Assembly (NCBI GenBank): GCA_025999215.1
Contig: AP024679.1
Coordinates: 433,082 to 497,081 of the forward strand
DNA: 64,000 bases
From: Candidatus Dojkabacteria bacterium
Lineage (GTDB): Bacteria; Patescibacteriota; Dojkabacteria; J137
Direction: 5' to 3'
Below are positions 1 through 18,834 of this stretch, one piece after another. Position numbers and translations under genes: made by a program. Below the pieces are notes generated by a model. That model was not told the DNA's origin and did no database searches. It was given only the letters and a program-made list of their open reading frames with translations. Position 1 is the first letter of the stretch. The number at the start of each line of letters is the position of its first letter.

Positions 1-1035
1 GGCGTGACAGTTGTTTTGCCTTGGCTTAAGAATTTTATGCGTGATATTGGTGAATCACCATTATTTGCAGCTAAAACGCCATTTAAGCAACCTGGTTTTG
101 TGTATGAAGGCGGTGGTGATTGTAACGAAGATGGTGAATGTTTGGGGTTAAGAAGAAGTTGGTTAATTGTTGATAAAGAATATCAAAGAAGAATCAAGCA
201 AGTGAAGGTACAAGTATGTACTGATCAACCTGATAAACTTGCAAGACCAGTAGATATAGCGCTGGGTTTTGCAGAAGAAAAAGTTTTTACATATTATGTT
301 AGCCCAGTGCCTGAGTGGCAAAATTTTGTTGACTCGTATATGCGCCAGAAGCATTCTGAAAATCCAGCAGAAAATCCTTTGAATGGTGGACCTGAAGAAT
401 ACTGTGATGTAGATAGGTCTGGTGGTTCTGACGATCCAATTTTGAATATTACTGCACCGATTAATGGTGATACCGTTACAAATAGCATAACTATATCTGG
501 CGGTGTTTACTCTGATAATTCAGATATTGTGAGTGTAAAGGTATATTTTGCGAATCAATTACTTGGAACCATCGCTTCAGGTTTTGAAAATTTAAATCAA
601 ACTTATGATATTTCTTCACTAAATTTAGAAAATGGAACATATACTTTTGTTATTGATGCTATAGATGCTAACGGCAATTCTAGTCAATATTCGATTGATT
701 TAGTAAAAGGTTCAGTTACAACATCTAATCTGACTTTTGTTACAGAACCTCCTTCTAGTTTAACTTATGGTGTAACAGTAAATCCAGTAACTCATACAAT
801 TACGGTAAACTATGCTGGAACTAAAACAATTAGTAGTGTGGAACTATATCAAATCAAAAATGGTACTGATATTACTTTGCTAGGAACAATGACAAACGCT
901 GGCTCAGGCAATTACACATATAGTTGGGGTGCTAGTGTACCTAACCAAACTGCAACTTATGAATTTTACGCTATTGTATACGTCAATGGCGGATTCTTGA
1001 AATCTCCTAATAGTAATCAAGTTTCTGTTAACTAA
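1..1035 (+). CDS. C-terminal fragment (5' truncated by the window edge) of a secreted/cell-surface protein. It has Thr/Ser/Asn-rich beta-sandwich (Ig-like) repeats.
   Basis: The ORF is open from the window start. The composition is NGT/TVT-rich and repetitive, typical of bacterial Ig-like surface domains. No catalytic motif was recognised. Confidence 0.45.
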   Translation, partial: GVTVVLPWLKNFMRDIGESPLFAAKTPFKQPGFVYEGGGDCNEDGECLGLRRSWLIVDKEYQRRIKQVKVQVCTDQPDKLARPVDIALGFAEEKVFTYYVSPVPEWQNFVDSYMRQKHSENPAENPLNGGPEEYCDVDRSGGSDDPILNITAPINGDTVTNSITISGGVYSDNSDIVSVKVYFANQLLGTIASGFENLNQTYDISSLNLENGTYTFVIDAIDANGNSSQYSIDLVKGSVTTSNLTFVTEPPSSLTYGVTVNPVTHTITVNYAGTKTISSVELYQIKNGTDITLLGTMTNAGSGNYTYSWGASVPNQTATYEFYAIVYVNGGFLKSPNSNQVSVN

Positions 1036-1165
1036 AGAAATTCACAATAAAGTTAAAAGTTTTAACTTTTAGAAATGTAAATATTTTATCGAATCGCTTT
1101 TTGAAACGTTTATACTTTGGTGATCATTTAACTATTCTACTCTACTGTTTTTATAAAAAACTTCT

Positions 1166-1196
1166 CTAAATTTTAAAAAAAGGTTTAGAGTTTTTA
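1166..1196. terminator. Candidate bidirectional hairpin terminator between the convergent ORF ending at 1035 and rplT.
   Basis: The inverted repeat CTCTAAA(N13)TTTAGAG is flanked by T/A runs on both strands. Confidence 0.3.
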
Positions 1197-1229
1197 TAAA
1201 AAATAAAAAAACTTTTGGGTAATGGAAAA

Positions 1230-1574
1230 TTATTTGGTAACTTCTTTCACAATCTGATCAAAAGTCTCAGGTCTGGAAACTGCCAATTCAGAAAGAACTT
1301 TTCTATCAAGCGCAATATTTTTAGCTTTAAGATTTGCTACAAAATCTTTGTATGCAACACCACGCTGCGAAAGTGCACTTGAAATTGTTTTAATCCATTC
1401 TGATCGAAGTTGTGATTTCCTTCTTCTTCTGTGCGCAAAACTATACTGTCCAGCATGAAGCGTAGCCTCTATTGCTCTTCTGTAAAGTTTACTGTAGGTT
1501 AGTCTATAACCTTTCACTCTTTTTAAAACCTTTTTATGGCTTTTTCTTTTGGAGTGACCTCTTTTAATTCTCAT
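1230..1574 (-). CDS. rplT: 50S ribosomal protein L20.
   Basis: The translation MRIKRGHSKRKSHKK...YRLTYSKLYRRA...AHRRRRK shows the characteristic basic L20 N-terminus and length. It is the last gene of the infC-rpmI-rplT operon. Confidence 0.9.
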   Translation of the reverse strand: MRIKRGHSKRKSHKKVLKRVKGYRLTYSKLYRRAIEATLHAGQYSFAHRRRRKSQLRSEWIKTISSALSQRGVAYKDFVANLKAKNIALDRKVLSELAVSRPETFDQIVKEVTK

Positions 1575-1599
1575 AATCTCTAATTAATAGCTATTCCTT

Positions 1600-1833
1600 T
1601 TAATTTTTCTTTTTAATTCCTAATAATTCTTTCACTCTTTTTTGTTCTGGTTTTGATAATTCTAATTTATCCTTATCAACTCTTCTTTTTGAACTTCTTT
1701 TATTCTTTTTGTGGGCATTATTTTTTAATCTTTGAACTACCCTTGTTACTACTCCAGAACCAGTAACTTTAAATCTTTTGGCTGTAGATTTATGCACTTT
1801 CTTTTTAATTTTAGTTTTTTTAGCTTTACTCAT
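1600..1833 (-). CDS. rpmI: 50S ribosomal protein L35.
   Basis: A short, highly basic protein (MSKAKKTKIKKK...KRFKVTGSG) sits between infC and rplT. Confidence 0.85.
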   Translation of the reverse strand: MSKAKKTKIKKKVHKSTAKRFKVTGSGVVTRVVQRLKNNAHKKNKRSSKRRVDKDKLELSKPEQKRVKELLGIKKKN

Positions 1834-2390
1834 GATTTTTTCTTAACATTAATTACTAAATTATATCCTTCTTTTCGCACTTCCGATATTTCTTCAACCT
1901 TATCTTTCATCATTTCTCTAAGTCTTTCCATTGTAGCATACATTTGCTCTCTTGGCACTCTTCTAGTAGATTTAATTGTTAATTTAGCTGTATTACCTTT
2001 TGATACAAATTCAATAACCCTTTTTAGTTTGTTTTCCATGTCGTTATCTGCAATGTTAGGTTTGAACCACCACTCTTTATTTTTGACTTGGTGACCTTTA
2101 GCATTTTTAGCTTTTTTGGTTTGCTCGTACTTAAATTTTGACCAGTCTATGATTTTAGCTACAGGCGGATCAATATCTGGCGATACAAGAACCAAGTCTA
2201 AACCAACCTCTCTTGCTTTTGCTAAAGCTTCTGCTTTTGAAAGTACACCTAGATTTTCACCATTTTGATCTATTACTCTCATTTTCTCGGCACGAATATG
2301 ATTATTTCTATCGTACCATTTTATTTGAATAGATTTTTTCTTTGGCGATTTTCTAACTCTCCTGATCTTTTTACACTTAAAAATTAACAA
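1830..2390 (-). CDS. infC: Translation initiation factor IF-3.
   Basis: The motifs IRAEKMRVIDQNGENLGV...AREVGLDLVLVSP...VAKIIDWSKFKYE match the IF-3 N- and C-domains. The true start is probably downstream of the annotated ATG (infC commonly uses a non-AUG start). Confidence 0.85.
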   Translation of the reverse strand: MLIFKCKKIRRVRKSPKKKSIQIKWYDRNNHIRAEKMRVIDQNGENLGVLSKAEALAKAREVGLDLVLVSPDIDPPVAKIIDWSKFKYEQTKKAKNAKGHQVKNKEWWFKPNIADNDMENKLKRVIEFVSKGNTAKLTIKSTRRVPREQMYATMERLREMMKDKVEEISEVRKEGYNLVINVKKKS

Positions 2391-2429
2391 TGATATACTA
2401 ACATATTTTTAAAATATTGACAATGGATT

Positions 2430-3980
2430 TTACCCTATTTTTAGGTTTTCACTCAAAAAAGATGTTAAGTTTTCATAATCCATTAATCCAACCTCCCTAC
2501 CTTCAAACCTCACAGAAACTGAATTGTTTGTAACCTCTTTGTTACCAATCACAAGTATGACAGGAATTTTTCTTTCTTCAGCATTTCTGATTTTATTTTG
2601 TATACTTTTAGATCTTAAATCTACTTCCACATTATATCCTTGTTTTGCAATTTTTTTACTAAAATTGCTGGCGAATTCATTTTGTTTAGATTTTATTGGT
2701 ATACAAATAATATGAGTTTCTTTAATTGTAGTTGGTAAATTTCCATTGTTTTCTTCGAGTAAGTAAGCAATGATTCTTAGAGGTACCACTTCAATCTCAG
2801 TTACAAAAAGATTTTTATTTTCATTTTTCTCATCTACATAAGTAGGTGTATTTTGTGTGAAAGTTCTTAAGGATGCCAGTTGCCACTTTCTATCAAAAGA
2901 ATCTAGCACAAAAAATACAGTTTCCACGACACCATTAGTTTTGGTAAGCACTTGGTTGTGAGACACAACATTACTTTTCAAAACACTAGAAATGACTTTA
3001 ACTTTACCATCATCTAAATTATCACTTAAAATGTCGGCAGACACATCAATTAGAAGTTTTTTCCTGAATATATCAACAATTTCTTCTATTTGAATTCCCA
3101 ATTCACTCATTCCTTCCGTATCGGTGAACATCGAAATAATTGTTTGTACTAAAGTTTCAATTTTTTCTTTTTTAATTTCAAAAAAATTGGTTGAGTCGTA
3201 ATTAAAAATTAAAGGAAATTCTTTGTAACCATGATTTTTAGATTTGTAATTTTCGAATAGAATTTTTCTAAATTCGTAATTATTTTTTCCTTGAGGAAAG
3301 AGTGTTTGGTTTAAAATGTTATCTTTCAAGCTTCTCAAAAATAATTTTTTGAGACTCTTTATTGAATTTGCACCAAGAGGTGAAAAGTATATTGAGTTTT
3401 CGTATTCAAAAAATAAATTAGATGATAAGCCTATTGTTTTGTAGTTTTTGTTTTTGACAATTTCTAGCTTTTTTTTATAATCTTGTGCCTCATTAAGATT
3501 TCGAAATACCATTCCATAGACTCTTTGCAATTCTGGTCTGTTAGGATCATCTCTCCAAAAAGATTGCTCTACTTTGTTTACTACAATTATCCCAATTTCT
3601 TCAGTTGATGATACATGCGGTCCTCTGCACAAATCTGTAAATTCTTCTCCTAGTTTGTAAAAGCTTACTTCAGGCTCATCAATTTGTTTAACTAATTCTG
3701 CTTTGTAAATCTGGCCGTTTTGAAGTAAAAAATTCAAAGCGCTATCTTTATCGAGTGTTATTTGTGTAAATTTATGATTTTCTTTAATTATTTCGTTAGC
3801 AACTGCTTCAATATTTTTTAAATCTTCTTCTGTAATTTTTTTATCAATATCGATATCGTAATAAAATCCTTCACTGGTTACTGGTCCTATTCCAAATTTT
3901 ACTTCAGGAAAAACTCTTTTTATTGCTGCCGCCATAACGTGAGCCGCAGAGTGTTTGACTGTATCAGAAATTTTGGTCAT
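2430..3980 (-). CDS. Threonyl-tRNA synthetase homologue. It has an N2/editing-type domain, a divergent class-II core and an anticodon-binding domain. There is no TGS domain, and motif 2 and the Zn ligands appear to be missing.
   Basis: HSAAHVMAAAIKRVFPEVKFGIGPVTSEGFYYDID and LCRGPHV match the ThrRS N2 (tRNA_SAD) HxxxH/CxxxH motifs. The C-terminus IPVILVIGNKEV...VSVRFEGREVG matches the ThrRS anticodon-binding domain. The middle 230 aa align to the catalytic core but lack the KPMNCPGH/FGSCHRNE/H511 signatures. The gene occupies the conserved position upstream of infC. Confidence 0.6.
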   Translation of the reverse strand: MTKISDTVKHSAAHVMAAAIKRVFPEVKFGIGPVTSEGFYYDIDIDKKITEEDLKNIEAVANEIIKENHKFTQITLDKDSALNFLLQNGQIYKAELVKQIDEPEVSFYKLGEEFTDLCRGPHVSSTEEIGIIVVNKVEQSFWRDDPNRPELQRVYGMVFRNLNEAQDYKKKLEIVKNKNYKTIGLSSNLFFEYENSIYFSPLGANSIKSLKKLFLRSLKDNILNQTLFPQGKNNYEFRKILFENYKSKNHGYKEFPLIFNYDSTNFFEIKKEKIETLVQTIISMFTDTEGMSELGIQIEEIVDIFRKKLLIDVSADILSDNLDDGKVKVISSVLKSNVVSHNQVLTKTNGVVETVFFVLDSFDRKWQLASLRTFTQNTPTYVDEKNENKNLFVTEIEVVPLRIIAYLLEENNGNLPTTIKETHIICIPIKSKQNEFASNFSKKIAKQGYNVEVDLRSKSIQNKIRNAEERKIPVILVIGNKEVTNNSVSVRFEGREVGLMDYENLTSFLSENLKIG

Positions 3981-4022
3981 AACATTTTCTCTATCTTAGA
4001 GAAATATAAAATTTAATACACA

Positions 4023-4096
4023 TGAGCACTACAGGATTCGAACCTGTGACCTTTCCCACGTCAAGGGAACGCTCTAACCAGCTGAGCTAAGTGCTC
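4023..4096 (-). tRNA. tRNA-Val (anticodon GAC). No encoded CCA.
   Basis: It folds as a cloverleaf: acceptor GAGCACT/AGTGCTC, D arm GCTC/GAGC, anticodon stem TTCCC/GGGAA with loop TTGACGT, and T arm ACAGG-TTCGAAT-CCTGT. Confidence 0.85.
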
Positions 4097-4689
4097 TTTT
4101 GCACCTTCTTTTTTTCTATTACGCTGTCGATAATTCCATATTCTACTGCCTGTAGAGCTGTCATGTGATAGTCTCTGTCAATATCTTTTAATACTTTTTC
4201 TTTCTTCTGCCCAGTTGATTCCACTAACATATCTACCAATTTATCTTTGAGCCTTAAAATTTCTTTAGCTGTAATTTCAATGTCTGATGCTTGACCTTCA
4301 ACTCCTCCTAGTGGTTGATGAATTAAAATCAAACTGTTTGGCAAAGCAAACCTTTTGCCTTTTGTGCCTTGAGACAAAATCATAGCTCCCATTGAAGCAG
4401 CTTTACCTACCGCAATGGTAACAATATCAGGTTTTATATAATTCATTGTGTCAATTATTGAAAGACCGTCATATACAGAACCTCCAGGACTATTGATGTA
4501 CATGGTTATATCTTTTTTAGGATCTTCTTTTTCTAAAAAGAGAAGTTGAGCAATCACTGCATTTGCAACCCCCTCATCAATCGCCGTGCCCAAAAAAATT
4601 ATTCTATCTTTGAGTAGTCTAGAATAAAGATCATAAGCTCTTTCTCCATCTCTGGTTCTTTCAATTACGTTTGGTATTAAATATGCCAT
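4087..4689 (-). CDS. clpP: ATP-dependent Clp protease proteolytic subunit.
   Basis: The sequence [23 protein letters not shown]...[19 protein letters not shown]...GKAASMGA carries the ClpP Ser-His-Asp context. The 3' end overlaps the tRNA-Val 5' end by about 10 nt. Confidence 0.9.
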
Positions 4690-4926: not shown

Positions 4927-5463
4927 TCACCATATAAATCTATCACCTATTTTAATTCCATTCTTTTCTGTCCAAAAAGCATTTACTTCAAGTGTGTATT
5001 TTGCCGGTTTTTCTGATGAGTAAATTTCTGTAGTTTGGTTTGGCATGGTGTTAGTGTGAATTTTAACAACTTTTTTATCTGCATCTAAAAATATAATATC
5101 TAGTGGAATATAAGTATTTTTCATCCAAAAGTTTAGAGTTTGTTCTTTTTCAAACACAAAAAGCATGCCAGCATCTTCAGGTAGATAATCTCTAAACATC
5201 AAACCTCGCTGCCTTTCTGTGTTATCATCAGCTATTTCTACAAAAATTTTTTTACCGTTCGGTGCGATTATTTCAATATTTTCTGAAGGTATTGCGTTTA
5301 ATTGAATGTCTTGATTTGCTTCGTTGTTATTTAAAAAGTTTTCACCTACACCTAACGCGATTAAAACAGCAAAAAAAACAGAAATTACTGTAGCAATAGC
5401 GCTAATTAAAAGTATAATCGGAGATTTGAGGTTTTGTAAAATTTTGTTTTTAATATTATTCAT
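4927..5463 (-). CDS. DUF192 (COG1430) family protein with an N-terminal membrane anchor.
   Basis: The GLMFR...GMLFVF...FWMKNTYIPLDIIFLD pattern is typical of DUF192. Confidence 0.65.
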   Translation of the reverse strand: MNNIKNKILQNLKSPIILLISAIATVISVFFAVLIALGVGENFLNNNEANQDIQLNAIPSENIEIIAPNGKKIFVEIADDNTERQRGLMFRDYLPEDAGMLFVFEKEQTLNFWMKNTYIPLDIIFLDADKKVVKIHTNTMPNQTTEIYSSEKPAKYTLEVNAFWTEKNGIKIGDRFIW

Positions 5464-7301
5464 TAAATTATTCGTTTAAAAAATTTATCTATATCTTCTT
5501 TCGTTAGTTTGTAGTAAGTTGGTCGTCCATGTGGGCAATTTTTGGGGTATTTAAGGCTAAACAAATCGTTAATGAGCTTATTCATTTCGTCTATAGATAA
5601 TTTTTGTCCAGCTCTAATTGATCCGTGGCATGCTGTTTTTGCCCAAACTACATACTGTTCTTGTGTTAATTTTACACTAGTTTCAAACTCGTAACTACTA
5701 AATTTTGAATCAAGATCATCTGATTCTTCGTTTATTATCTCATCAAAGAATTCGTTTAAATTTATATTTTCTAAGTCTTCAGGGATTTCCATAATTTGTA
5801 AGGATTTTTGTCCAAATCTTTCAAATTTAAATCCTATCTGAATTAAATCATTTTCAATCTTTTTAATATTATCTTTACCGCTAGTAGTTAACTCGACAAT
5901 TGCGGGAATTAATAGAGGTTTTGATTTAGGTTTTTGAATTTTTCGTAGCAATTTTTCAAAAATGATTTTTTCGTGAGCTGCATGCTGATCAACTATAATT
6001 AAGTTTGAATTTTGTTCAAACAGTATGTATGTTCCAAAAATTTGCATAGGGTTTTTGTTCCATGAAAAGGAAATCTCAACTTCATTTTTGCTACTATTAA
6101 TTCCTTCATCTGATAATAATTGCTGAGTAAATTCAAGTGCTTTTTTGACTTCATAATTTTTGTTTCTTTGGCTTCCGATATTAAATTTAATTTTATTACT
6201 CTGCTCTGTTTTTTGTAAGGGTAAGTAATGCCTTGGTGGATTAGTAGTTTTTAAATCTGGTTCATTTGAAAAGTTATTTTCTTCTCCTAAAAAATCTTTG
6301 AGTAATTCTTGCTTGGACTCTTTCTCAAGTGTTTTTTTGACGCTCAGAAAAACAGACTTGAAAATGGAACCTGGATCATCAAAACGAACTTCAAGCTTTC
6401 GTGGGTGCACATTAACATCAACTTGATTTGAATCAAGTGTTAAAAACAAAATATATTGTGGCTTTAAATCTTTATGCAAGAAACCTGAGTATGCTTTTTG
6501 GATTGCTGATGAAATAGTTTTGTTAGTTACAAATCTTTTGTTGATAAAAATATATTGAACTGGATTTGTTTTTTTTCCAAGTTTTGAATTACCCAAAAAA
6601 CCATTTAATTTGATTGAATTACTGTGAGCAGTTAAGTTATATGAGTTTTCTAAAAATTCTCTACCTAAAATATCTTTTATTCTGTTCTCAATTGAAGTTT
6701 TTTCTAGATTATAAAGTTGTTTATTATTGTGGTAAAGCTCAAAATGTATTTCAGGATTTGCAAGAGATGCATGAATGAAAACTTGGATAATGTGTCTAAG
6801 TTCAGTTTGATTAGATTTTAGAAATTTTTTTCTTGCAGGAACTGTAGCAAATAAATTAAAAACTTGAATTCTTGTGCCGTTATTGTAACCTTCTGGAGAA
6901 GCTTCTGAGATGGTTGTTGGGGTTACCACCACCGCTTTTGGGTTACTATCGGGTGTTTTAGATTGTAAAATAATCTTTTCAGCAACTGAACGAATGCTAG
7001 CCATTGCTTCACCTCTAAAACCAAATGAATTAATTTTAAGTAGGTCAGAAGATTTTTTAATTTTAGAAGTTGCGTGTTGTTCAAACACTAAATCAATATC
7101 ATCACTCTCTATTCCTATTCCATCATCAATAATTTCAATCAAATCTAGCCCATAGTTTTCAATATAAACTTTAATATGAGTTGCATTGGCATCAATGCTA
7201 TTTTCTAAAATTTCCTTAACTACGGACGCTGGTCTTTCAACAACTTCACCGGCAGCAATAAGGTTTATTACATGTGGAGGTAGTTTGTTAATTTTTCCCA
7301 T
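5463..7301 (-). CDS. mutL: DNA mismatch repair protein MutL.
   Basis: The N-terminal GHKL ATPase motifs IAAGEVVERPASVVKEILENSIDA and GTRIQVFNLF are present, with a C-terminal dimerisation domain. The length is 612 aa. Confidence 0.9.
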   Translation of the reverse strand: MGKINKLPPHVINLIAAGEVVERPASVVKEILENSIDANATHIKVYIENYGLDLIEIIDDGIGIESDDIDLVFEQHATSKIKKSSDLLKINSFGFRGEAMASIRSVAEKIILQSKTPDSNPKAVVVTPTTISEASPEGYNNGTRIQVFNLFATVPARKKFLKSNQTELRHIIQVFIHASLANPEIHFELYHNNKQLYNLEKTSIENRIKDILGREFLENSYNLTAHSNSIKLNGFLGNSKLGKKTNPVQYIFINKRFVTNKTISSAIQKAYSGFLHKDLKPQYILFLTLDSNQVDVNVHPRKLEVRFDDPGSIFKSVFLSVKKTLEKESKQELLKDFLGEENNFSNEPDLKTTNPPRHYLPLQKTEQSNKIKFNIGSQRNKNYEVKKALEFTQQLLSDEGINSSKNEVEISFSWNKNPMQIFGTYILFEQNSNLIIVDQHAAHEKIIFEKLLRKIQKPKSKPLLIPAIVELTTSGKDNIKKIENDLIQIGFKFERFGQKSLQIMEIPEDLENINLNEFFDEIINEESDDLDSKFSSYEFETSVKLTQEQYVVWAKTACHGSIRAGQKLSIDEMNKLINDLFSLKYPKNCPHGRPTYYKLTKEDIDKFFKRII

Positions 7302-8420: not shown

Positions 8421-9707
8421 CTATTTAACTTTTTCTATTTGTGCTCCAAGTGTTAAATAAGTTTCAACTAATTCAGGATAACGTCTGCTCAATTGATCTG
8501 TTTCGTCAATTAAGGTTGAAACGCCACTTGCACCAAGTGCCGCTACAAATAAAGCTTTGGCTGAAGCGATAATATTCGGAGCTTTGATTACTGTACCTTC
8601 TAATTTGCTTGGCCCAAAAGTTATCACTCTGTGAGGATCTGCCATTACAACATTTGCTTTAAGTTTTGCTAGCTCTTCTATGAAGTAAAAGCCGTACTCG
8701 TAAAATGAATTATGAAATATTAAACTTCCCTCTGCAAAACATGCAGCGACTACTAGTGATTGTATAGCATCAGGAGGAAATTGTGGCCAATGTAGCGCCA
8801 TAATTTGAAATAAATCTCCTCTAACAGTTTTGTGAGCTTTTAATTTTTGATTTTTAGGAATTATAAGTTTATCTCCTTCGTAGTAAGAGTTAAGATTTAT
8901 TTTTTCAAAGGCAGATCTAATATTTGTCATGTGTTCTGGAATTGCGTTATTTATAGTGAGCTCGCTTCCAGTGACAGCAGCTATTGCCATATATTCTGCG
9001 ATATCTAAATGATCACTTATCACATTCCACTCTGTTCCCTTAAGTTTATCTACACCATTTATCACTAATTTGTTAGAGCCAATGCCTTTAATTTTAGCTC
9101 CCATGCTAACCAACATGTTACATAAATCTTGAGTGTGAGGTTCACAAGCAGCATTGTAAATTTCTGTAACTCCAGGCGTTAGTACAGCCAAATTAATTAA
9201 ATTTTCTGTTCCTGTAACACTTGGAAACCAAGACCAAACTTTTGCGCCTTTTAATTTTTTTGCCTCTAAAAAATAACCTTTTTCTCTTCTGTAAACAGCA
9301 CCAAGTTGCACCATATTATCAATAAAAGCATCCAGTGGCCTTGAACCTAATTTACACCCCCCCGGTATAGGCATTTCAGCTTTTCCAAATCGATGAAGAA
9401 GTGGCGCCATAAACATTACAGAAGCCTTTGCTTTTTGGGATAAATCCTCATCGATTTTATAAGTATTAATACCTTTAGCTACTATTTTCACAGATGTTCC
9501 ATTGTTAAAATACGTAACCTTACCGCCGAGAGTTTTTACAATTTTAAGCATTATTCTTACATCAGAACTTTTAGGAACATTGTGTATGATTACTGGTTCA
9601 TCAGTCAATAAACTAGCTGGAATTAATTTTAAAATTGAATTTTTATTTGGAACTGGAGTAACCTCACCATTTAGTTCTATGCCTCCTTGAATTTTATATA
9701 CAGCCAT
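8421..9707 (-). CDS. murA: UDP-N-acetylglucosamine 1-carboxyvinyltransferase.
   Basis: The sequence MAVYKIQGGIELNGEVTPVPNKNSILKLIPASLL is the EPSP-synthase fold N-terminus. The length is 428 aa. Confidence 0.9.
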   Translation of the reverse strand: MAVYKIQGGIELNGEVTPVPNKNSILKLIPASLLTDEPVIIHNVPKSSDVRIMLKIVKTLGGKVTYFNNGTSVKIVAKGINTYKIDEDLSQKAKASVMFMAPLLHRFGKAEMPIPGGCKLGSRPLDAFIDNMVQLGAVYRREKGYFLEAKKLKGAKVWSWFPSVTGTENLINLAVLTPGVTEIYNAACEPHTQDLCNMLVSMGAKIKGIGSNKLVINGVDKLKGTEWNVISDHLDIAEYMAIAAVTGSELTINNAIPEHMTNIRSAFEKINLNSYYEGDKLIIPKNQKLKAHKTVRGDLFQIMALHWPQFPPDAIQSLVVAACFAEGSLIFHNSFYEYGFYFIEELAKLKANVVMADPHRVITFGPSKLEGTVIKAPNIIASAKALFVAALGASGVSTLIDETDQLSRRYPELVETYLTLGAQIEKVK

Positions 9708-9912
9708 TGATTAAATTTAAAATATTTTAATAATTATACCTTAAAATTAAAAATTACTCTAAAATTTCGAAAGGGGTAGTTAGATAATAACGTTAAAGTA
9801 TTTAGTATTCTAAAATTAAGAAAACCATTTTGCAGTTTTGGCTTTCTATGAGGATAACCAGGCCAGCAGCAAGGTCTATTTGCGCTTGTTGATTTTTTTT
9901 CTAAAATCAATA
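9688..9912. repeat. Copy A of a roughly 225 bp direct repeat. It spans the murA promoter/leader plus the first codons of murA.
   Basis: It is near-identical to 12190-12414 (over 95% in the promoter-proximal 130 bp and about 75% distally). It contains a TATAAT about 30 nt upstream of the murA ATG. Confidence 0.75.
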
Positions 9913-10088: not shown

Positions 10089-12113
10089 TTAATCAGGAAC
10101 TTTTTGTAGTAAAAATTCTCTACAGTAAATCCTGGGTGGTTTAGACCAATCTATTTCACCATCAGGTTTGCGCTCATGTAAAATAAAACATCCATATCCA
10201 TATTGCCTTAACCCTATTCTACTGATCACGATCACATTATTTTTTAATTTTAATAGTTCTTTAACATATTTGTGATGCTTACGGGTTGCGTACATATTTT
10301 CATATATTCCATACTTTATACCAAAGTTACATGTGTACACACTAACATGTTTGCCATCCTCACATGCTTTGACATTTAGAATGGGTTCAACTGGTACATA
10401 CTTGAATCCTGCCCTTTTCCAATTATCTACTGCTTGATATACTCTTAACCAAGAAATAAATTCTTCATTTGATATGACTCTTCTATTACTTTTGTTGTCT
10501 AGCTCTTCAGTAATAATTGGGGGCTTTTTCTCTGCTTTTGATATTTCTTTTATTTCTGATTTTTCAAGGTTTTCTATTAGTTTTAATACATCTTTTTCGA
10601 TTGGTTTTCTATTTTTTTCTGGCAGATACTCAAAATTCCAAGCAAACCCAGGCGCAGCTTCTTTTGGTGCCATATCAATAAGTAGTCTAGCTACCTGTAA
10701 TTGATTCCCTTCATGTAAAGATGGGAGTCTAAAAGCGACCTCGTAAGCGGTTCCTTTTGGGTTTACACCCATAAGTAACTTAATGACTGCTAATTGATTT
10801 TTTTCTGACAAGTCCCGAAGTTGCCAAGCCACATTGCGAAGAAATTCGTCATTAATTGCTTTGGGAGCTTTTTCTATAAGTGAAGTAATAATTTCTATTT
10901 GAGTATCTTCTGGTAAACATGCTAAATGGCCAGCGAGGTTCTCAGCAGACTCTTGAGGTGCTTTTTCAACAAGTAGTTTAGCAATATCTCCCCTAATATC
11001 TTCAGATATATCATCAATTTTGTCAGATAACGGGCCTGCCGTTGGATTTATATATTCATCCTTATGTAACATGTACAAAATTTCATTTTTGATTTCTTGG
11101 GGTAATTCTTCAAATTCGCAAATTTCCCGAGCAAGTTCAGGTGCCGCTTCTTTTGGTGCTATATCGAGCAGTAAATTAAAGATATGTATCATTTGCTTTT
11201 CAGAAATAAACTCGCCGACATAAAAAAGTTTTTTAGCAAGTTCAGGTGCAGCTTCTTTTGGTGCTTTCTCTAGAATTAATTTTAATATTTCCATTTGAGC
11301 TTTTTCTGGTAAATATATGGCCTGATTTGCAAGCCCTGGTGCAGCTTCTTTAGGAGCTTTTTCTATAAGCTTTTTTGCGAAGTCTGCTCTAACTTCTTCT
11401 GGAAGGTCATTAATACCCCAGGCAAGTTTAGGTGCAGCTTCTTTTGGTGCTATATCGAGAAGCTTGTTTGCAAAGTCTACTCTTGTTTCTTTTGGAAGAT
11501 AAGAAACACTCCAGGCAATTTCAGGTACCGCTTTTTTGAGGGCTACATCAAACAGTAAATTAACAATTTGTTTTCTATTTTCGTATGGAAAAGATTCTAT
11601 GGAGCTAGCGATTACTGGAGCCGCTTCTTTGGGGGCATTCTCTAGGAACCAAGGTAATGCTTCTCTTTTAACCTCTGATGGGAGGTACTTAAAATTTTCA
11701 TATTCAGCTATTGCAGAAGTCACTTTTTTTAAATTTTTCTCCTTTATATGTTTTAAGAGCATTTTACAGATTTTTGTAAAAACTGCTGGTTCAAGAAGGC
11801 GATACAAATCTGAAATAAAGTTAGCAAGTTTAACCCCAGCTTCCTCTGGAGCGATATCTAAAATCTCTTGGGTTTTTTCGAAATAATCTCCTTGTTGACT
11901 ACATAGTGATAACATCGCATCAGTTATTTTAAAGTTTATTGGATCATTTTCGATAATGTTCTGGTATTGCCTTTCTAAATTTTCAACTATTTTTTGAAAC
12001 TCATCCTGGGACCATTTAGGTGCACCTGGCAAATGATACATTTCATAGTTTGCTATCATGTTGCGTGCCGTTTCACTTAAACTTGAATTAATTGAGGAAG
12101 TATTTTGTGACAT
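10089..12113 (-). CDS. Repeat protein of 674 aa. It has about ten roughly 30-aa 'L(L)DIAPKEAAPxLA...LPEE' HEAT-like repeats and a roughly 140-aa C-terminal domain of unknown function.
   Basis: The long ORF is intact. The nucleotide-level periodic repeat (gcagcttcttttggtgc recurring about every 90-100 bp) translates to APKEAAP. The C-terminal region ...YGCFILHERKPDGEIDWSKPP... has no recognised motif. Confidence 0.65.
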   Translation of the reverse strand: MSQNTSSINSSLSETARNMIANYEMYHLPGAPKWSQDEFQKIVENLERQYQNIIENDPINFKITDAMLSLCSQQGDYFEKTQEILDIAPEEAGVKLANFISDLYRLLEPAVFTKICKMLLKHIKEKNLKKVTSAIAEYENFKYLPSEVKREALPWFLENAPKEAAPVIASSIESFPYENRKQIVNLLFDVALKKAVPEIAWSVSYLPKETRVDFANKLLDIAPKEAAPKLAWGINDLPEEVRADFAKKLIEKAPKEAAPGLANQAIYLPEKAQMEILKLILEKAPKEAAPELAKKLFYVGEFISEKQMIHIFNLLLDIAPKEAAPELAREICEFEELPQEIKNEILYMLHKDEYINPTAGPLSDKIDDISEDIRGDIAKLLVEKAPQESAENLAGHLACLPEDTQIEIITSLIEKAPKAINDEFLRNVAWQLRDLSEKNQLAVIKLLMGVNPKGTAYEVAFRLPSLHEGNQLQVARLLIDMAPKEAAPGFAWNFEYLPEKNRKPIEKDVLKLIENLEKSEIKEISKAEKKPPIITEELDNKSNRRVISNEEFISWLRVYQAVDNWKRAGFKYVPVEPILNVKACEDGKHVSVYTCNFGIKYGIYENMYATRKHHKYVKELLKLKNNVIVISRIGLRQYGYGCFILHERKPDGEIDWSKPPRIYCREFLLQKVPD

Positions 12114-12148: not shown

Positions 12149-12205
12149 CTACAACATACTCAATGCATCTAACTCTACGCCTCCTTTAATTTTGTATACA
12201 GCAAT
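12149..12205 (-). pseudogene. Remnant of the murA 5' end (about 18 codons, no start codon).
   Basis: It translates to IAVYKIKGGVELDALSML*, matching the murA N-terminus MAVYKIQGGIELNGEV. It lies at the inner edge of repeat copy B, directly upstream of the 674-aa gene. Confidence 0.6.
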
Positions 12206-12414
12206 TGATTAAATTTAAAATATTTTAATAATTATACCTTAAAATTTAAAATTACTCTAAAATTTTGAAAGGGGTAGTTAGATAATAACGTTAAAGTATT
12301 TAGTATTCTAAAATTAAGAAAACCTTTTTTTCATTTTGGATTTCTGTGAGAACAACTAGGCCAGCAATAAGATGTTTTTGCACCTGTAGATATTTCTTTT
12401 TCTAAAAGGTTTAA
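12190..12414. repeat. Copy B of the roughly 225 bp promoter/leader direct repeat.
   Basis: See copy A. Here it now drives the 674-aa repeat-protein gene. Confidence 0.75.
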
Positions 12415-12908: not shown

Positions 12909-13739
12909 TTGAAATTTATGGAAGAATCAAAAACTACTTCAAACCAAGATATGAAGACTGAAAAAGTTAAATCAAATGGAAAAAGTAAGGTCTGGTTGAT
13001 TGCAGGTTTGTTATTTGTGATTTTTTTATGTTGTTGTTTGTGTGTGGGAGTTTTGGGTTATATGTTGTTTCAATCTGAAGATTTTAAAGAGGGATATTGT
13101 GAATCACTAGAAGAGGATGATGCATTGGATAATGATTTGTTAGGTTTGTGTGATGATTGGGAACCATCTTACGAAAAAGAAGATACCAAGGTTAGTTCAA
13201 ATGACAGCGATAAAAAAGCTGACGTTGTAGACAACAATACAGACACTAAAAAAGATGAATCTAACGACAAGAAGCAAAATAATGATAGTGCTTATGTTAT
13301 TTATGATGGTTATTACTTTTCATTCGAATATCCAAGATATTGGAAACAAAGCACATCTTCTACAGATTGGTCAACAGTTGAGTTTACATCTGAAGAAGGA
13401 GTTGTAATTAGTTTAAAATCAATTTATGATAATGAGTATTCAAAGAATTTGTCAGGTTGTAGTGAATATGAAGAGTCAATTTTTAGTGGTTTGACTAGTG
13501 TGTATGATAATGTTGAGTCTGAATCTGTTTTATTTACAACTACGGAGAATGGATATGCCGCTTGTTATTTAAAAGGTTATCTTGTTGATGGACCTATTAC
13601 TACAGTTTTAGAGCAATATTTAGTATTTGATCCTTTGATTGATACTTTTGCTTTAGAATTTGGAATTAAATACGATTCTAGAGATTCTGGCATGGGTAGT
13701 TACTTGCAACATGCTGTTGATACATTAACGTTTGAATAA
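12909..13739 (+). CDS. Hypothetical N-terminally membrane-anchored, Cys-rich, acidic protein.
   Basis: It has a single TM segment (LIAGLLFVIFLCCCLCVGVLGYMLF) followed by a D/E/S-rich extracytoplasmic region. The start is probably the ATG at about 12918. Confidence 0.5.
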   Translation: MKFMEESKTTSNQDMKTEKVKSNGKSKVWLIAGLLFVIFLCCCLCVGVLGYMLFQSEDFKEGYCESLEEDDALDNDLLGLCDDWEPSYEKEDTKVSSNDSDKKADVVDNNTDTKKDESNDKKQNNDSAYVIYDGYYFSFEYPRYWKQSTSSTDWSTVEFTSEEGVVISLKSIYDNEYSKNLSGCSEYEESIFSGLTSVYDNVESESVLFTTTENGYAACYLKGYLVDGPITTVLEQYLVFDPLIDTFALEFGIKYDSRDSGMGSYLQHAVDTLTFE

Positions 13740-14690: not shown

Positions 14691-15963
14691 AATTTAATTT
14701 AGTTTCTGAGTATAAACCTGCTGGTGATCAACCACGAGCGATTGATACGCTTTCTAATGGTTTGCTTGCTGGGAATCAAGCACCAAACGCTTGGTTGGTG
14801 CGACCGGAACTGGTAAAACTTTTACAATGGCAAATATCATACAAAATCTTGGGAAACCTGCTTTAATTCTTTCTCACAACAAAACTTTAGCTGCTCAATT
14901 GTTTGCTGAATTTAAAAAATTTTTTCCTTACAATGCTGTTGAGTATTTTGTGAGTTACTACGATTATTATCAGCCTGAGGCTTATGTTCCCTCAAGAGAT
15001 TTGTATATTGAGAAAGATGCCGATATAAACGACACAATTGAGCGGTACAGGTCTTCAGCTAGCCAGTCGCTTTTGACAAGAAAGGATGTGATTGTAATTT
15101 CAACCGTTAGTTGTATCTATGGGCTAGGGAATCCTGCAGATTATTTAGAATTAAGTTTTGAATTTAATGTTGGGGAAAGTTATAAACGCGATAATATTTT
15201 AGCGCGACTAACAGATATGCAGTATGAAAGAAACCAACTTGATTTCATGCCTGGGAGTTTTAGAGCCATTGGTGAGATTATTGATATTTATTTAACAAAT
15301 GCAAATGATGAAGCTGTAAGGTTAGAGTTTTTTGGTGATGAATTGGAATCTATAAAGATAATTAATCCTCTAACAGGCGAGTTTGTAAAAAATTTAAATT
15401 CAGTTATTATTTTTCCTGCCAAACACTATGTAAGTCCACATCATAAACTAATGGAAACGATTGAAACAATAAGAGAAGATATGAAAAAAGAAGTTCAGCA
15501 ATTTTTGGATAAAGGAAAGGTGGTGGAAGCAACGAGACTTAAGCAAAGGGTTGAATATGATTTGGAAATGATTGCTGAAACAGGTTTTGTAAAAGGCATT
15601 GAAAATTATTCTAGATACATTGACAGAAGACCACCCGGAAGTGCGCCATCATGTTTAATTGATTATTTTCCTCATGATTACATTATGTTTATTGATGAAT
15701 CACATATAACTGTTCCGCAAATTGGAGGAATGTACAATGGCGATCGCGCACGGAAACAGAGCTTGGTAGATTATGGTTTTAGGATGAAAGCAGCGCTAGA
15801 TAATCGACCTTTGAAATTTGAAGAATTTGAACAAAAATTAAACCAAGTTATTTACACCACGGCAACGCCAAGGGATTATGAAATTCAGAAAAGCATGAAT
15901 GCAACAGAAGAAATTAGGGAAAAAAGCCCTCAAATATTCAGTGGAAAAATGTTAGAATATTAG
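14687..15963 (+). CDS. uvrB: Excinuclease ABC subunit B, N-terminal roughly 415-residue portion only. There is a -1 frameshift near 14775-14795 and a premature end at 15963.
   Basis: MEFNLVSEYKPAGDQPRAIDTLSNGLLAGN (frame 2) continues as LVGATGTGKTFTMANII...YFVSYYDYYQPEAYVP...FIDESHITVPQIGGMYNGDRARKQSLVDYGFRMKAALDNRPLKFEEF...YTTATPRDYEIQKS (frame 1), which is canonical UvrB. After EIQKS the frame diverges and stops. Confidence 0.85.
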
Positions 15964-15999: not shown

Positions 16000-16808
16000 A
16001 TGGTGATGGGTCTTGCTGAGGTTATCCCTGGAGTGAGTGGGTCAACCATGGCTTTGGTGATGGGTATTTATGATGATTTCATCAATCTACTCTACTCTTT
16101 TTCAAAGTTGGCGCAAAATTGTGTTGAGTTTTTGTTTCGAAAGAAAAGATTTTTTTGATCTTAAACAAGAGTTGACTGAACTATCTAGAATGGGGTTTTG
16201 CTATACCTTTGTTTTTCGGCATGATTGTGTCAATTTTATCTTTTGCCAATATTTTAAACTATTTCATTGATAAATCACCGGGTTACGTGCTTGCTTTTTT
16301 CTTTGGATTGGTGGTCGCATCGGTGTCAATTCCACTTCAGAGAGTTGGTAAGACCCAACATTTTGAAAGTTCTTTTGTTCTTGCTTCTCTCTTGCTTTTT
16401 TCTATTTTTTGCTTGGAGTTGATCCTATTGAGTTAAACGGTAAGCCAAATTTAGTTTATGTATTTTGTTGGGGGTATGCTTGCCATTTGCGCAATGAGTT
16501 TGCCTGGAATTAGCGGTTCTTTTATTTTGCTATTGTTGGGTTTGTATGAATACATTATTTCTATAATTAAAGATTTGTCTCATTTTAAGTTTAACTTCAG
16601 TGATTTTACTAGGTTGGTTGTTCTTTCTTTTGGTGTGGTGGCTGGATTTGTATTGTTTGTGAGAATACTAAAATGGTTGCTTTCAAAATACGAGGGCGAA
16701 TTGATGGCTTTTCTTGCAGGCTTGATGTTGGCATCGCTAAGAATTTTGTGGCCATTTATCGATAATTCACAGGAAGTTTCGAGAGTTTGGATGCTTATCC
16801 CAAGGTGA
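16000..16808 (+). pseudogene. DUF368 (COG2035) membrane protein gene with three or more frameshifts.
   Basis: The pieces VIPGVSGSTMALVMGIY..., FFGMIVSILSFANILNYFIDKSPGYVLAFFFGLVVAS and LPGISGSFILLLLGLYEYI are successive parts of one DUF368 protein, spread across three frames. Confidence 0.6.
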
Positions 16809-16914: not shown

Positions 16915-18834
16915 TCACACCAAGGAAGCTTTGAGTCGCCTCAGGTTTGAGCCTATGTTTTCTTGTTTTAAAATTTTGAACTTTTTATTATTCTCTCCCA
17001 AAACTCCTGTTGTTTCAACATGCGGTCCTCCGCAAAACTCTTTTGAGAAACGCCTCATCTAAACTATTACCTATAAAATAAATGGTTACTTTGTCGGGAT
17101 ATTTTTGTCCAAACTCCATTTCTGCACCAATTTTTTGTGCTTCGCCTGAGAGGCATTTCTACTCTCTTCACTGGTAAATTTTCTGTGATCTTTTGATTGA
17201 CAATATCTTCAATTTTTTTGATTTCCTCTTCTGTAATTTTTTTTGAATAGTTAAAATCTATTCTTAATCTTTCAGAAGTTATGTTGCTACCTCTCTGGTG
17301 AATATTTTCGTCTAACACAAGCTGTAATGCTCTCAAAAGCAAGTGGTGAGCTGTGTGAAGCTTGGTTGTTTCGTGCGAGTGATCTGCCAAGCCTCCAGTA
17401 AATTTTTTTTGAGCGCCGGCACGAGATTGTTCTTTATGTTGTTCTAGCAACGTTTTAAAACCAACTATGTCTACTATAAATCCTATTTCTTTTGATAATT
17501 CTTGTGTCATTTCTACTGGAAATCCATAAGTTTCATAAAGATGGAAAGCTTCTTCACCTTTTAAGAAATTTCTATGAGGATTTTCGGATTTTTTGATATC
17601 AGTAACGATTTTGTAAAATTGCTTAATACCATTGTCTAGAGTTTTTCTAAATTTTATTTCTTCTTTATCTATTTCATCAATTATAAACATCTCCTTTTCT
17701 TTAAGATGAGGATAAGCATCTTTCATTTTTTCAATTACTAGGCTTGCCAAATCCTTGGTGAAATTTTTTTCTATTCCAAGAATTTTTGCATGTCTTATCA
17801 TCCTTCTGATTAAGCGCCTCAAAATATACCCTTGATCTTTGTTAGATGGCGCAATTCCATCGGCAAGAATAAAAGTTGATGCTCTTGCATGATCAGCTAT
17901 AATCCTGAATGCTTTCGTATATTTACTTCTGTTCTTCGTTGTGATCGTATTTGTGGCCTGATATATTTTCTATTGCGTTGATGTAGTCAATAAATAAATC
18001 AGTTTCGTAAACTGAGCGCTTGTTTTGAACTGTAGCGACAATTCTGTCTAGCCCTCCTCCATAATCAATGTTTTTTTGCTCCATAGGCTTCCATTTTCCA
18101 TCCTCAAATCTGTATTCCATAAAGACACTGTTTCCAATTTCTAAGTATCTTCCTGAATCATCATTAATGTGCAGTTTTTCTCCAGTATCATTTAATACTG
18201 TTTGCATATCATAAAAAATTTCTGAGCACGGTCCACCCAATTCTCCATTAACCTCGGGCCCTCTCTGCCACCAATTGTCTTTTTTACCATAAGGAAATAT
18301 TCTAAATTGCCAATTTTGACTTGATTCACCCTGTTGAGGAACATTTGTAATATCTTCACTAAATTTCGCTTCTATTCCATATTTTTTAAATGCCTTTATC
18401 CATGCGTCAATGGCTTCATCATCGCGAGGTATATTATCATCTCCTCCCCAGACGCTAGCAAAAATTCTTTGGGGATCAAGTCCGAACTTTTCTACATAAA
18501 GCTCCATTTTCCAAAGTATTTGTTCAGTTTTTGAAAAAGCGCCCAAAGACCAGTTACCGATCATTTCAAAAAAAGTTAAGTGATTGTAGTCGCCAACATC
18601 TTCAATATCATTTGTTCTTAGACATCTTTGTACATTACACAATCTTTTTCCCAAAGGATGAGGCTGTCCAGCTAGATATGGCACAAGTGGAAACATGCCT
18701 GAATTTACAAAAAGTAAAGTTGGATCATTATTTGGGACAAGGGATACATTCGGGATAATTTTTGCATTTCTTGGAGAACTTGTCCAAAATTTCAAAAATT
18801 CATTTCTTATTTCATCGGATGTTTTCATGAACAA
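16915..18834 (-). pseudogene. alaS: Alanyl-tRNA synthetase (catalytic, tRNA-recognition and editing regions) with three or more frameshifts. It ends without a C-Ala domain.
   Basis: The N-terminal core is LVPNNDPTLLFVNSGM...QRCLRTNDIEDVG...HLTFFEMIGNWS. Frame breaks occur at about 17920 (…EEQK* then KAFRIIADHARAS…), about 17148 (MPL then EAQKIGAEMEFGQKYPDKV) and about 17070 (…then FSKEFCGGPHVETTGVL…RRLKASLV*). Confidence 0.75.

Follow-up and report, generated by a model that had tools for sequence, protein, structure and literature searches.

The 64-kb stretch of the Candidatus Dojkabacteria contig AP024679.1 analyzed here, which we call the window, carries on its minus strand a complete gene for a protein of 674 amino acids, in which a conserved N-terminal region and an array of short repeats precede a C-terminal domain. 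An earlier reading of this DNA, made from the sequence alone, had noticed the gene and described its product as a repeat scaffold joined to a C-terminus that matches nothing nameable. The open reading frame (ORF) is indeed there, as are the C-terminal peptides quoted by that sequence-only reading, and the product is 100% identical to an NCBI entry, 'MAG: hypothetical protein KatS3mg085_430 [Candidatus Dojkabacteria bacterium]', of an 862-kb contig (MAG, metagenome-assembled genome). Our main finding is that the protein belongs to a large family of which it has kept the architecture and lost the active-site motifs; it is probably a pseudoenzyme of a new minimal kinase-fold family, and would then likely serve as a non-catalytic binding or scaffold protein.

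Results

A large family without annotation, shared by CPR bacteria and DPANN archaea

BLASTP searches with the window protein returned two homologs, P0002 (E 5e-93) and P0003 (E 4e-79), which are 34-36% identical to it along the repeats as well as the C-terminus. A profile built from these three sequences brought in 14 further proteins, and an exhaustive hmmsearch of 1.84 billion representatives (clusters at 50% identity) with a profile of the C-terminal domain yielded 601 of them at E<=1e-3 and 287 at E<=1e-30. The window protein itself matches the family profile at E 6.1e-56 over amino acids 513-671. In all matches listed, the domain occupies the extreme C-terminus of the protein, mostly of 350-800 amino acids; the shorter proteins look like fragments from short contigs.

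The family is unannotated in Pfam, NCBIfam and PADLOC. Scans against these three collections and a sequence search of the PDB gave nothing meaningful for the C-terminal approximately 165 residues of the window protein, in keeping with the earlier remark that this part resembles no named sequence family. The named members are all called 'hypothetical protein', except for one partial archaeal 'HEAT repeat domain-containing' protein, and we came across no description of the family in the literature searched.

One group of sources is the candidate phyla radiation (CPR): Harrisonbacteria, Uhrbacteria, Nealsonbacteria, Saccharibacteria, Magasanikbacteria, Nomurabacteria and Paceibacterota (loci L005-L013 and L022). 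Two Iainarchaeum and three Nanoarchaeota records add the DPANN archaea (loci L015, L017, L018 and L020). The presence of the domain in both groups implies either transfer between domains of life or a common function linked to lifestyle. Three further loci (L004, L014 and L021) come from contigs of 9-13 kb whose labels, Gammaproteobacteria or Pseudobdellovibrionaceae, may be binning errors. Paralog expansion also occurs, since the Paceibacterota MAG SO_2016_GW1_123 holds at least three members, two of them in tandem (L016, positions 155-853 and 878-3019; L009 and L019). As for the window, no second copy of the C-terminal domain was found in its 64 kb. Over 23 loci we found no conserved neighbor gene, and nothing besides the family gene is common to more than two of them.

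The N-terminal region is also a family trait. Its motif reads 'LPxYLxMYEISGQxxITxHSFxRYxxDK' in the family and EMYHLPGAPKWSQDEF in the window protein; the subfamily to which the window protein belongs has 'MFxLPNKP' as the core, and the protein itself has 'EMYHLPGAPKW' ('EMYHLPG' at amino acids 24-30). Of 140 long family members, 104 contain a match to a regular expression for this core ('MY/MF-x-[IL]-[SP]-[GN]'), and the region aligns with P0002 from amino acid 33. This motif could dock on the truncated kinase-like domain described below, or be a modification site. A three-part soluble protein, made of N-terminal motif, solenoid and truncated kinase-like domain, thus defines this large CPR/DPANN family.

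The C-terminal domain has a kinase-like fold

AlphaFold2 (AF2) modelling of amino acids 499-674 of the window protein, with an alignment of 40 sequences, gave a mean predicted local distance difference test score (pLDDT) of 77, with a core above 90. The elements follow one another as strand, helix, two strands, helices and two strands. With this model as query, the top 50 Foldseek matches are all kinases, although weak ones (best E 6.9e-3; template modelling (TM) score 0.40). Indeed, two independent structure-comparison methods returned hundreds of matches, nearly all of them kinase-fold proteins. Structural scores being moderate, this is evidence at the level of fold only.

Profile searches lean the same way. 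Among 40 family members, 10 have sub-threshold Pfam matches to families of the kinase clan (Kdo, APH, RIO1, OspG_kinase, WaaY and Pkinase_fungal), and two independent members match the same segment of the Kdo profile, from position 116 to 170 or 173; the window protein itself has no Pfam kinase match. Taking models and matches together, we consider a kinase-like fold well supported and highly probable, the likeness being one of fold and not tied to any particular kinase family. The sequence-only reading was therefore right, at fold level, about a kinase-like look. It was mistaken in judging the domain too short for a kinase fold, as its approximately 165 residues are predicted to form a minimal one; moreover, the 'H.R…DG.IDW' that it cited corresponds neither to the catalytic loop nor to the Asp-Phe-Gly (DFG) motif, and sits in a subfamily-specific insertion between β7 and β8.

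Family motifs and their loss in the window protein

Conservation was counted over 158 members, in which 35 positions are at least 90% conserved. They spell out the string LY, F.K.G..T.LLGG (a Gly-rich loop), I.R, W…W..GFDYVPIEPI, V..VL, HGHxHxxNF and PR.Y.IDFD; an example of an intact member is P0034 (UniProt A0A2M6WK22) of Candidatus Harrisonbacteria. Several of the conserved features are unusual for a kinase. At the β3 position, in the strand ahead of the first helix, 97% of the family have an Arg where VAIK has Lys, and so does the window protein ('NRRVIS'). In the catalytic-loop equivalent, HGHxHxxNF, a His stands in place of the catalytic Asp and the Asn is retained. The spacing H-G-x-x-H-x-x-N is typical of APH, RIO and Bud32-type kinases, which have the catalytic Asp. 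Finally, the polypeptide ends 1 to 25 residues (typically about 6) past the DFG-equivalent IDFD in the window protein and in all members listed; the family as a whole therefore lacks helices αF to αI.

The window protein retains 24 of the 35 conserved positions, all structural, and has lost the other 11. Three losses (Y→I, F→I and I→N) fall within the first strands or close to them. Two affect the Gly-rich loop (G→E and G→T), where the family's 'T.LLGG.L', with glycines conserved at 92% or more, has become 'PIITEEL'; in the model this hairpin (model residues 22-41) falls below a pLDDT of 50. The H, H and N of the catalytic loop, each conserved at 98% or more, are replaced by Q, Y and C (H→Q, H→Y and N→C), and IDFD has undergone I→R, D→E and D→L, the protein ending 6 residues past the resulting REFL. 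All 11 positions are thus in or beside the Gly-rich loop, HGH..N, IDFD or the segment entering β1, and the window protein is the sole member among the 158 to lack both HGH..N and IDFD. A frameshift error is not the cause of this loss, because the other reading frames, in which we looked for the HGH and IDFD motifs, hide none.

Within the subfamily of the window domain, sequences are 62.6% identical to one another, and the window domain reaches 34.7% identity to them; to the main family it is 26.5% identical, compared to 37.7% for its sister sequences. It is a fast-evolving domain on a long branch.

The repeats form a HEAT-like solenoid

The repeats of the window protein follow the consensus 'APKEAAPxLAxxLxYLPEExRxxIxxLLxEK'; six units preserve it well and the others are degenerate. 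The motif AP[KQE]E marks 11 units, mostly 31 residues apart (at amino acids 88, 160, 191, 222, 253, 284, 319, 385, 416, 451 and 482), and the exact heptapeptide 'APKEAAP' occurs 6 times. A repeat hidden Markov model (HMM) detects 12 segments, among which 6 span the full unit (E<=1e-16), and since the two long gaps between motifs (72 and 66 residues) hold one degenerate unit each, the total is about 13. The array announced by the sequence-only reading is therefore real, and its count of about ten has to be raised to 12-13 units.

Pfam contains no HEAT match for these repeats, even at E<=10. Members of the window's subfamily weakly match HEAT_2 (E 0.002-0.014), and distant family members exceed the Pfam cutoff of that model (86, 44 and 36.5 bits versus 27.7); one distant member also weakly matches NblB and CpcF, HEAT proteins of the phycobilisome (PBS)-lyase type. 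Units of distant members look classical ('LESDDPKVQ..A..MI.YAP..ER..LI').

The solenoid was modelled on the homolog P0002 rather than on the window protein. The single-sequence AF2 model shows a regular solenoid (pLDDT 75-85) in which each 31-residue unit comprises helices of approximately 14, 10 and 3 residues; its C-terminal domain came out at a pLDDT of about 30, hence the model was used for the repeats only. Foldseek matched it to generic TPR, ARM and HEAT solenoids, the best TM-scores being those of the PP2A-A HEAT scaffold. As distant members pass HEAT_2 and one weakly resembles NblB and CpcF, 'HEAT-like solenoid' is a fair label, and the HEAT or PBS-lyase-like likeness proposed earlier is borne out. 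With the PBS-lyase-type repeats (HEAT_2; NblB, CpcE/F) the array shares the unit length of about 31 residues and the two-helix unit, whereas its 'APKEAAP…LPEE' units reach no Pfam repeat model.

Two sets of candidates in the repeat region were set aside. Several Pfam and NCBIfam matches of repeat-rich homologs, for example to 2EXR, EAD8, ABC1, HTH_46, FliH and a sigma factor, were rejected as sums of short repeat matches, because no single stretch passes and the matched 'family' varies from protein to protein. The antisense ORFs of 67-116 codons (10474-10704, 11020-11223 and 11536-11886, plus strand) are mechanical artefacts and not genes, as their counterparts recur at homologous loci merely through repeat similarity.

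The repeat DNA is old and diverged

The sequence-only reading had also described a strict DNA periodicity with about ten recurrences, and had deduced from it a contingency or variable locus prone to expansion. The periodicity was overstated: the 17-mer GCAGCTTCTTTTGGTGC has 3 exact copies, and 6 with at most 3 mismatches, which nonetheless far exceeds the 0.25 expected by chance (none of 100 shuffles reached 6). A looser 44-nucleotide (nt) family counts 9 copies, spaced by 291, 198, 105, 93, 93, 93, 93 and 216 nt, so that the exact 93-nt spacing is confined to five consecutive copies. Tandem Repeats Finder reports a 93-nt unit in 2.2 copies at 77% identity. Pairwise identity among the 93-nt units of the gene is 34-73%, and its longest exact internal repeat is 23 nt. 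The repeat DNA is old and diverged and is no phase-variable or contingency array, because its units differ too much to slip or recombine.

Repeat expansion and contraction do occur in the family over evolutionary time. The repeat HMM counts about 12-13 units in the window protein, 10 in P0002, 8-9 in P0003 and 11 in P0020. Moreover, the P0002 gene contains a true 93-bp array (9.9 copies, 90% identity, exact repeats of about 200 nt; locus L001, positions 5302-6220, in the Patescibacteria MAG JAYENP010000047), and it is this homolog, not the window gene, that has the expansion-prone property.

Genomic setting

The coordinates of the gene, its parts and its flanking repeats are collected in Table 1.

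Table 1. Features of the gene for the 674-residue protein and of its flanks, in window positions
Feature	Positions	Strand	Description
Complete ORF, 674 amino acids	10089..12113	minus	ATG to stop; stop codon at 10089-10091
N-terminal conserved region	11958..12065	minus	amino acids ~17-52; contains NYEMYHLPGAPKWSQDEF
HEAT-like alpha-solenoid	10578..11852	minus	amino acids 88-512; 12-13 units of ~31 amino acids
C-terminal minimal protein-kinase-like domain	10092..10577	minus	amino acids 513-674; degenerate member of the unannotated CPR/DPANN family
Degenerate β1-Gly-rich-loop-β2 hairpin	10497..10556	minus	amino acids 520-539, EIKEISKAEKKPPIITEELD; family 'F.KTGS.T.LLGG.L'
Degenerate catalytic-loop equivalent	10185..10208	minus	amino acids 636-643, 'RQYGYGCF'; family HGHxHxxNF
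Degenerate DFG-equivalent	10110..10121	minus	amino acids 665-668, 'REFL'; family 'IDFD' at 99%
233-nt direct repeat, upstream copy	12166..12398	minus	murA upstream region and decayed first ~13 murA codons; TATAAT box
233-nt direct repeat, second copy	9668..9900	minus	authentic murA 5' end and upstream region, downstream of the 674-residue gene

The neighbors of the gene are housekeeping genes: downstream, in the same orientation, lie thrS, clpP, DUF192, mutL, murB and murA, and upstream lies tRNA-Phe, which is also the only hit of an Rfam scan of the region. Its G+C content at third codon positions (24%) falls in the range of the neighboring genes (18-26%), and it is therefore no recent foreign insert.

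Two copies of a 233-nt direct repeat, and no more in the window, flank the gene. They are 88% identical overall, with a core of about 130 nt that is approximately 97% identical and includes the TATAAT box. The copy in front of the gene carries a decayed murA start (TTG GCT GTA TAC AAA ATT AAA GGA GGC…), from which it follows that the gene probably uses a duplicated murA promoter, the upstream copy being its probable promoter region. The duplication suggests an old insertion, duplication or rearrangement between tRNA-Phe and murA. A promoter and terminator scan was uninformative in this AT-rich DNA (17 sites versus 11.6 expected).

Further upstream, an ORF of 276 codons (12909-13739, plus strand) lies between tRNA-Phe and tRNA-Val; its product has no Pfam hit, a hydrophobic segment near the N-terminus and an acidic low-complexity stretch. 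Beyond it, several genes between 14020 and 18834 appear split or shortened: nth encodes only 168 amino acids, uvrB is present as an N-terminal piece of 390 amino acids (14791-15963), and both a VCA0040-like/DUF368 gene (16209-16436 and 16458-16808) and alaS (17067-17822 and 17923-18834) are broken into two ORFs. This could reflect true gene fragmentation, split genes or indel errors of the assembly.

Discussion

A probable pseudoenzyme of a new kinase-like family

How might such a protein work? In intact members, the Gly-rich loop, the Asn and DFD would bind nucleotide, presumably ATP, and metal, and the His-rich loop would catalyze a transfer. The solenoid may provide the surface for a substrate or partner, because the usual substrate-binding C-lobe is missing. 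The window copy would be unable to perform the chemistry of the family, since every conserved active-site position is substituted. It would be expressed from the duplicated murA promoter and would most likely persist as a pseudoenzyme with a binding or scaffolding role, the reading that we consider probable.

Several observations weigh against this reading. Sequence and profile methods gave no significant match to any kinase family or PDB chain: a sequence search of the PDB and PDB searches with two family profiles returned no kinase, and hhalign of intact members against human CDK2 gave a probability of 0.3%. Even intact members may not be kinases, because of the β3 Arg, the His in place of the catalytic Asp and the missing αF to αI. 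The window gene is present in one genome, and no ortholog above approximately 40-45% identity was found in the databases searched. Finally, its closest genomic relative is an outright pseudogene, which makes simple decay a live alternative.

That relative, of the window's subfamily, lies on a complete Patescibacteria chromosome (locus L003, positions 3398-4402; OZ245922.1). Its ORF is interrupted by an in-frame stop at '…NPVLYKGIDE*'; the domain resumes past the stop and is cut short ahead of the HGH loop. Downstream, at 5007-5456, lies a transposase-like ORF. The window gene might likewise be a non-functional relic, drifting neutrally since catalysis was lost and heading to deletion, its ORF being open only as a matter of timing. 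The disappearance of all active-site residues on a long branch would fit such a fate, as would a family without conserved genomic context whose copy number varies among genomes, and the fragmented look of several nearby window genes. However, a frame of 2,025 nt is still open in DNA of 32% GC, where base composition alone would place a random stop about every 13 codons. Moreover, the substitutions cluster in active-site motifs while the structural W, W, GF.YVP.EPI and PR.Y are kept, six exact APKEAAP and the N-terminal motif survive, the core of the promoter-like upstream repeat is approximately 97% conserved, and the core of the domain still models at a pLDDT above 90. We thus hold decay to be rather unlikely, though the most serious competitor of a retained binding protein.

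Less probable still is that the C-terminal domain is no kinase homolog at all, its alpha+beta likeness being convergent or artefactual and HGHxH…N…DFD being, for example, where an enzyme of unrelated origin binds metal. Metal-dependent hydrolases typically carry His-rich motifs, and the missing sequence or profile link to kinases, the moderate structural scores and the absence of helices αF-αI, of the β3 Lys and of the catalytic Asp would all suit this explanation. Against it, two independent structure-comparison methods return nearly only kinase folds among hundreds of matches, and the weak Pfam matches are to families of the kinase clan and share one profile register. Atypical kinases have in order a G-loop, a basic β3, a helix, two strands, a helix, H-G-x-x-H-x-x-N and I-D-F-[DG]; the order and spacing of the family's motifs are as in RIO, Bud32, APH and Kdo atypical kinases. 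These points make an unrelated enzyme improbable to us.

The sequence-only reading had favored a variable-copy repeat scaffold, a contingency locus, delivering a novel and active effector domain, a proposal with which the differing repeat numbers of the homologs (about 8-13 units), the nearly perfect array of P0002, the absence of a named family for the C-terminal domain and the episymbiotic life of CPR bacteria, which makes host-directed proteins plausible, would agree, but which we judge very improbable in view of the diverged repeat DNA of the window gene (34-73% identity, 23-nt longest exact repeat, 2.2 copies by Tandem Repeats Finder), a degenerate kinase fold with all conserved active-site residues replaced, housekeeping neighbors (tRNA-Phe, murA, murB and mutL) with no linkage to a secretion system, no neighbor conserved over the 23 loci, and an N-terminus (MSQNTSSINSSLSETARNMIANYEMY) that, read directly, is hydrophilic and has no hydrophobic signal sequence.

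Comparison with known systems

In size and in the absence of an activation loop, the domain resembles Bud32, RIO and the archaeal RNA kinases (Ark1, ArkI). These kinases have an 'HG-x-x-H-x-x-N' catalytic loop followed by 'IDF[DG]', much like the family's own. However, there is no significant sequence similarity to them, and the family differs by its His for the catalytic Asp, its Arg for the β3 Lys, its end about 6 residues past the DFG-equivalent, without C-lobe helices, and its constant position behind a HEAT-like solenoid; the window copy, in addition, is without all these motifs.

Among kinase-clan families, Kdo/WaaP (PF06293) is the one most often matched below threshold (E 0.015-0.11); in two members, those whose register was read, the match covers the segment from αE through the catalytic loop to DFG (profile positions 116-173). 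One member weakly matches OspG_kinase, of the OspG/NleH-type minimal effector kinases. In contrast to a true membership of either group, all matches are below curated cut-offs, the window protein has none, and the genomic context includes no lipopolysaccharide-core or secretion-system gene.

Known pseudokinases offer a parallel for the window domain. JAK2 JH2, Tribbles and Toxoplasma BPK1, the last of which is a pseudokinase without a glycine-rich loop, appear among its structural matches; as in these proteins, the fold is kept and the Gly-rich loop, the catalytic residues and the metal-binding Asp have been lost. Yet the known pseudokinases descend from protein kinases of eukaryotic type and have a full C-lobe, whereas the window protein derives from a truncated prokaryotic family of putative activity.

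As for the architecture, phosphatidylinositol 3-kinase-related kinases (PIKKs; mTOR, DNA-PKcs) and SCYL1-type proteins join a long, partner-binding alpha-solenoid to a kinase or pseudokinase fold. The window protein follows the same design principle, by analogy; the kinase class differs, the proteins described here are far smaller and prokaryotic, and in SCYL the order of the domains is reversed. What sets the family apart is thus the combination of truncation at the DFG-equivalent, His for Asp, Arg for Lys, constant fusion to HEAT-like repeats and restriction to CPR and DPANN.

Significance

Taken alone, the window gene is of modest interest, and the family that it exposes is the more interesting object. 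CPR and DPANN are two radiations of reduced genomes, many of whose members depend on a host. On a tentative view, which we put forward as a possibility with somewhat less than even chances, the family is a hitherto undescribed enzyme class restricted to ultra-small episymbiotic CPR and DPANN cells: a kinase fold cut after the DFG-equivalent, with an HGHxH..N loop and a β3 Arg, would receive its C-lobe or substrate platform in cis from the HEAT-like solenoid, possibly together with 'MYEISG', and would perhaps carry out a chemistry other than O-phosphorylation; the window protein would be its dead decoy or scaffold. A kinase fold that terminates at DFG, carries His and Arg substitutions and is tethered to HEAT-like repeats would broaden the kinase-like superfamily beyond its known limits. 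Should the intact members be active, they may be regulatory or host-interaction enzymes, and the pair of live and dead members would constitute a natural control.

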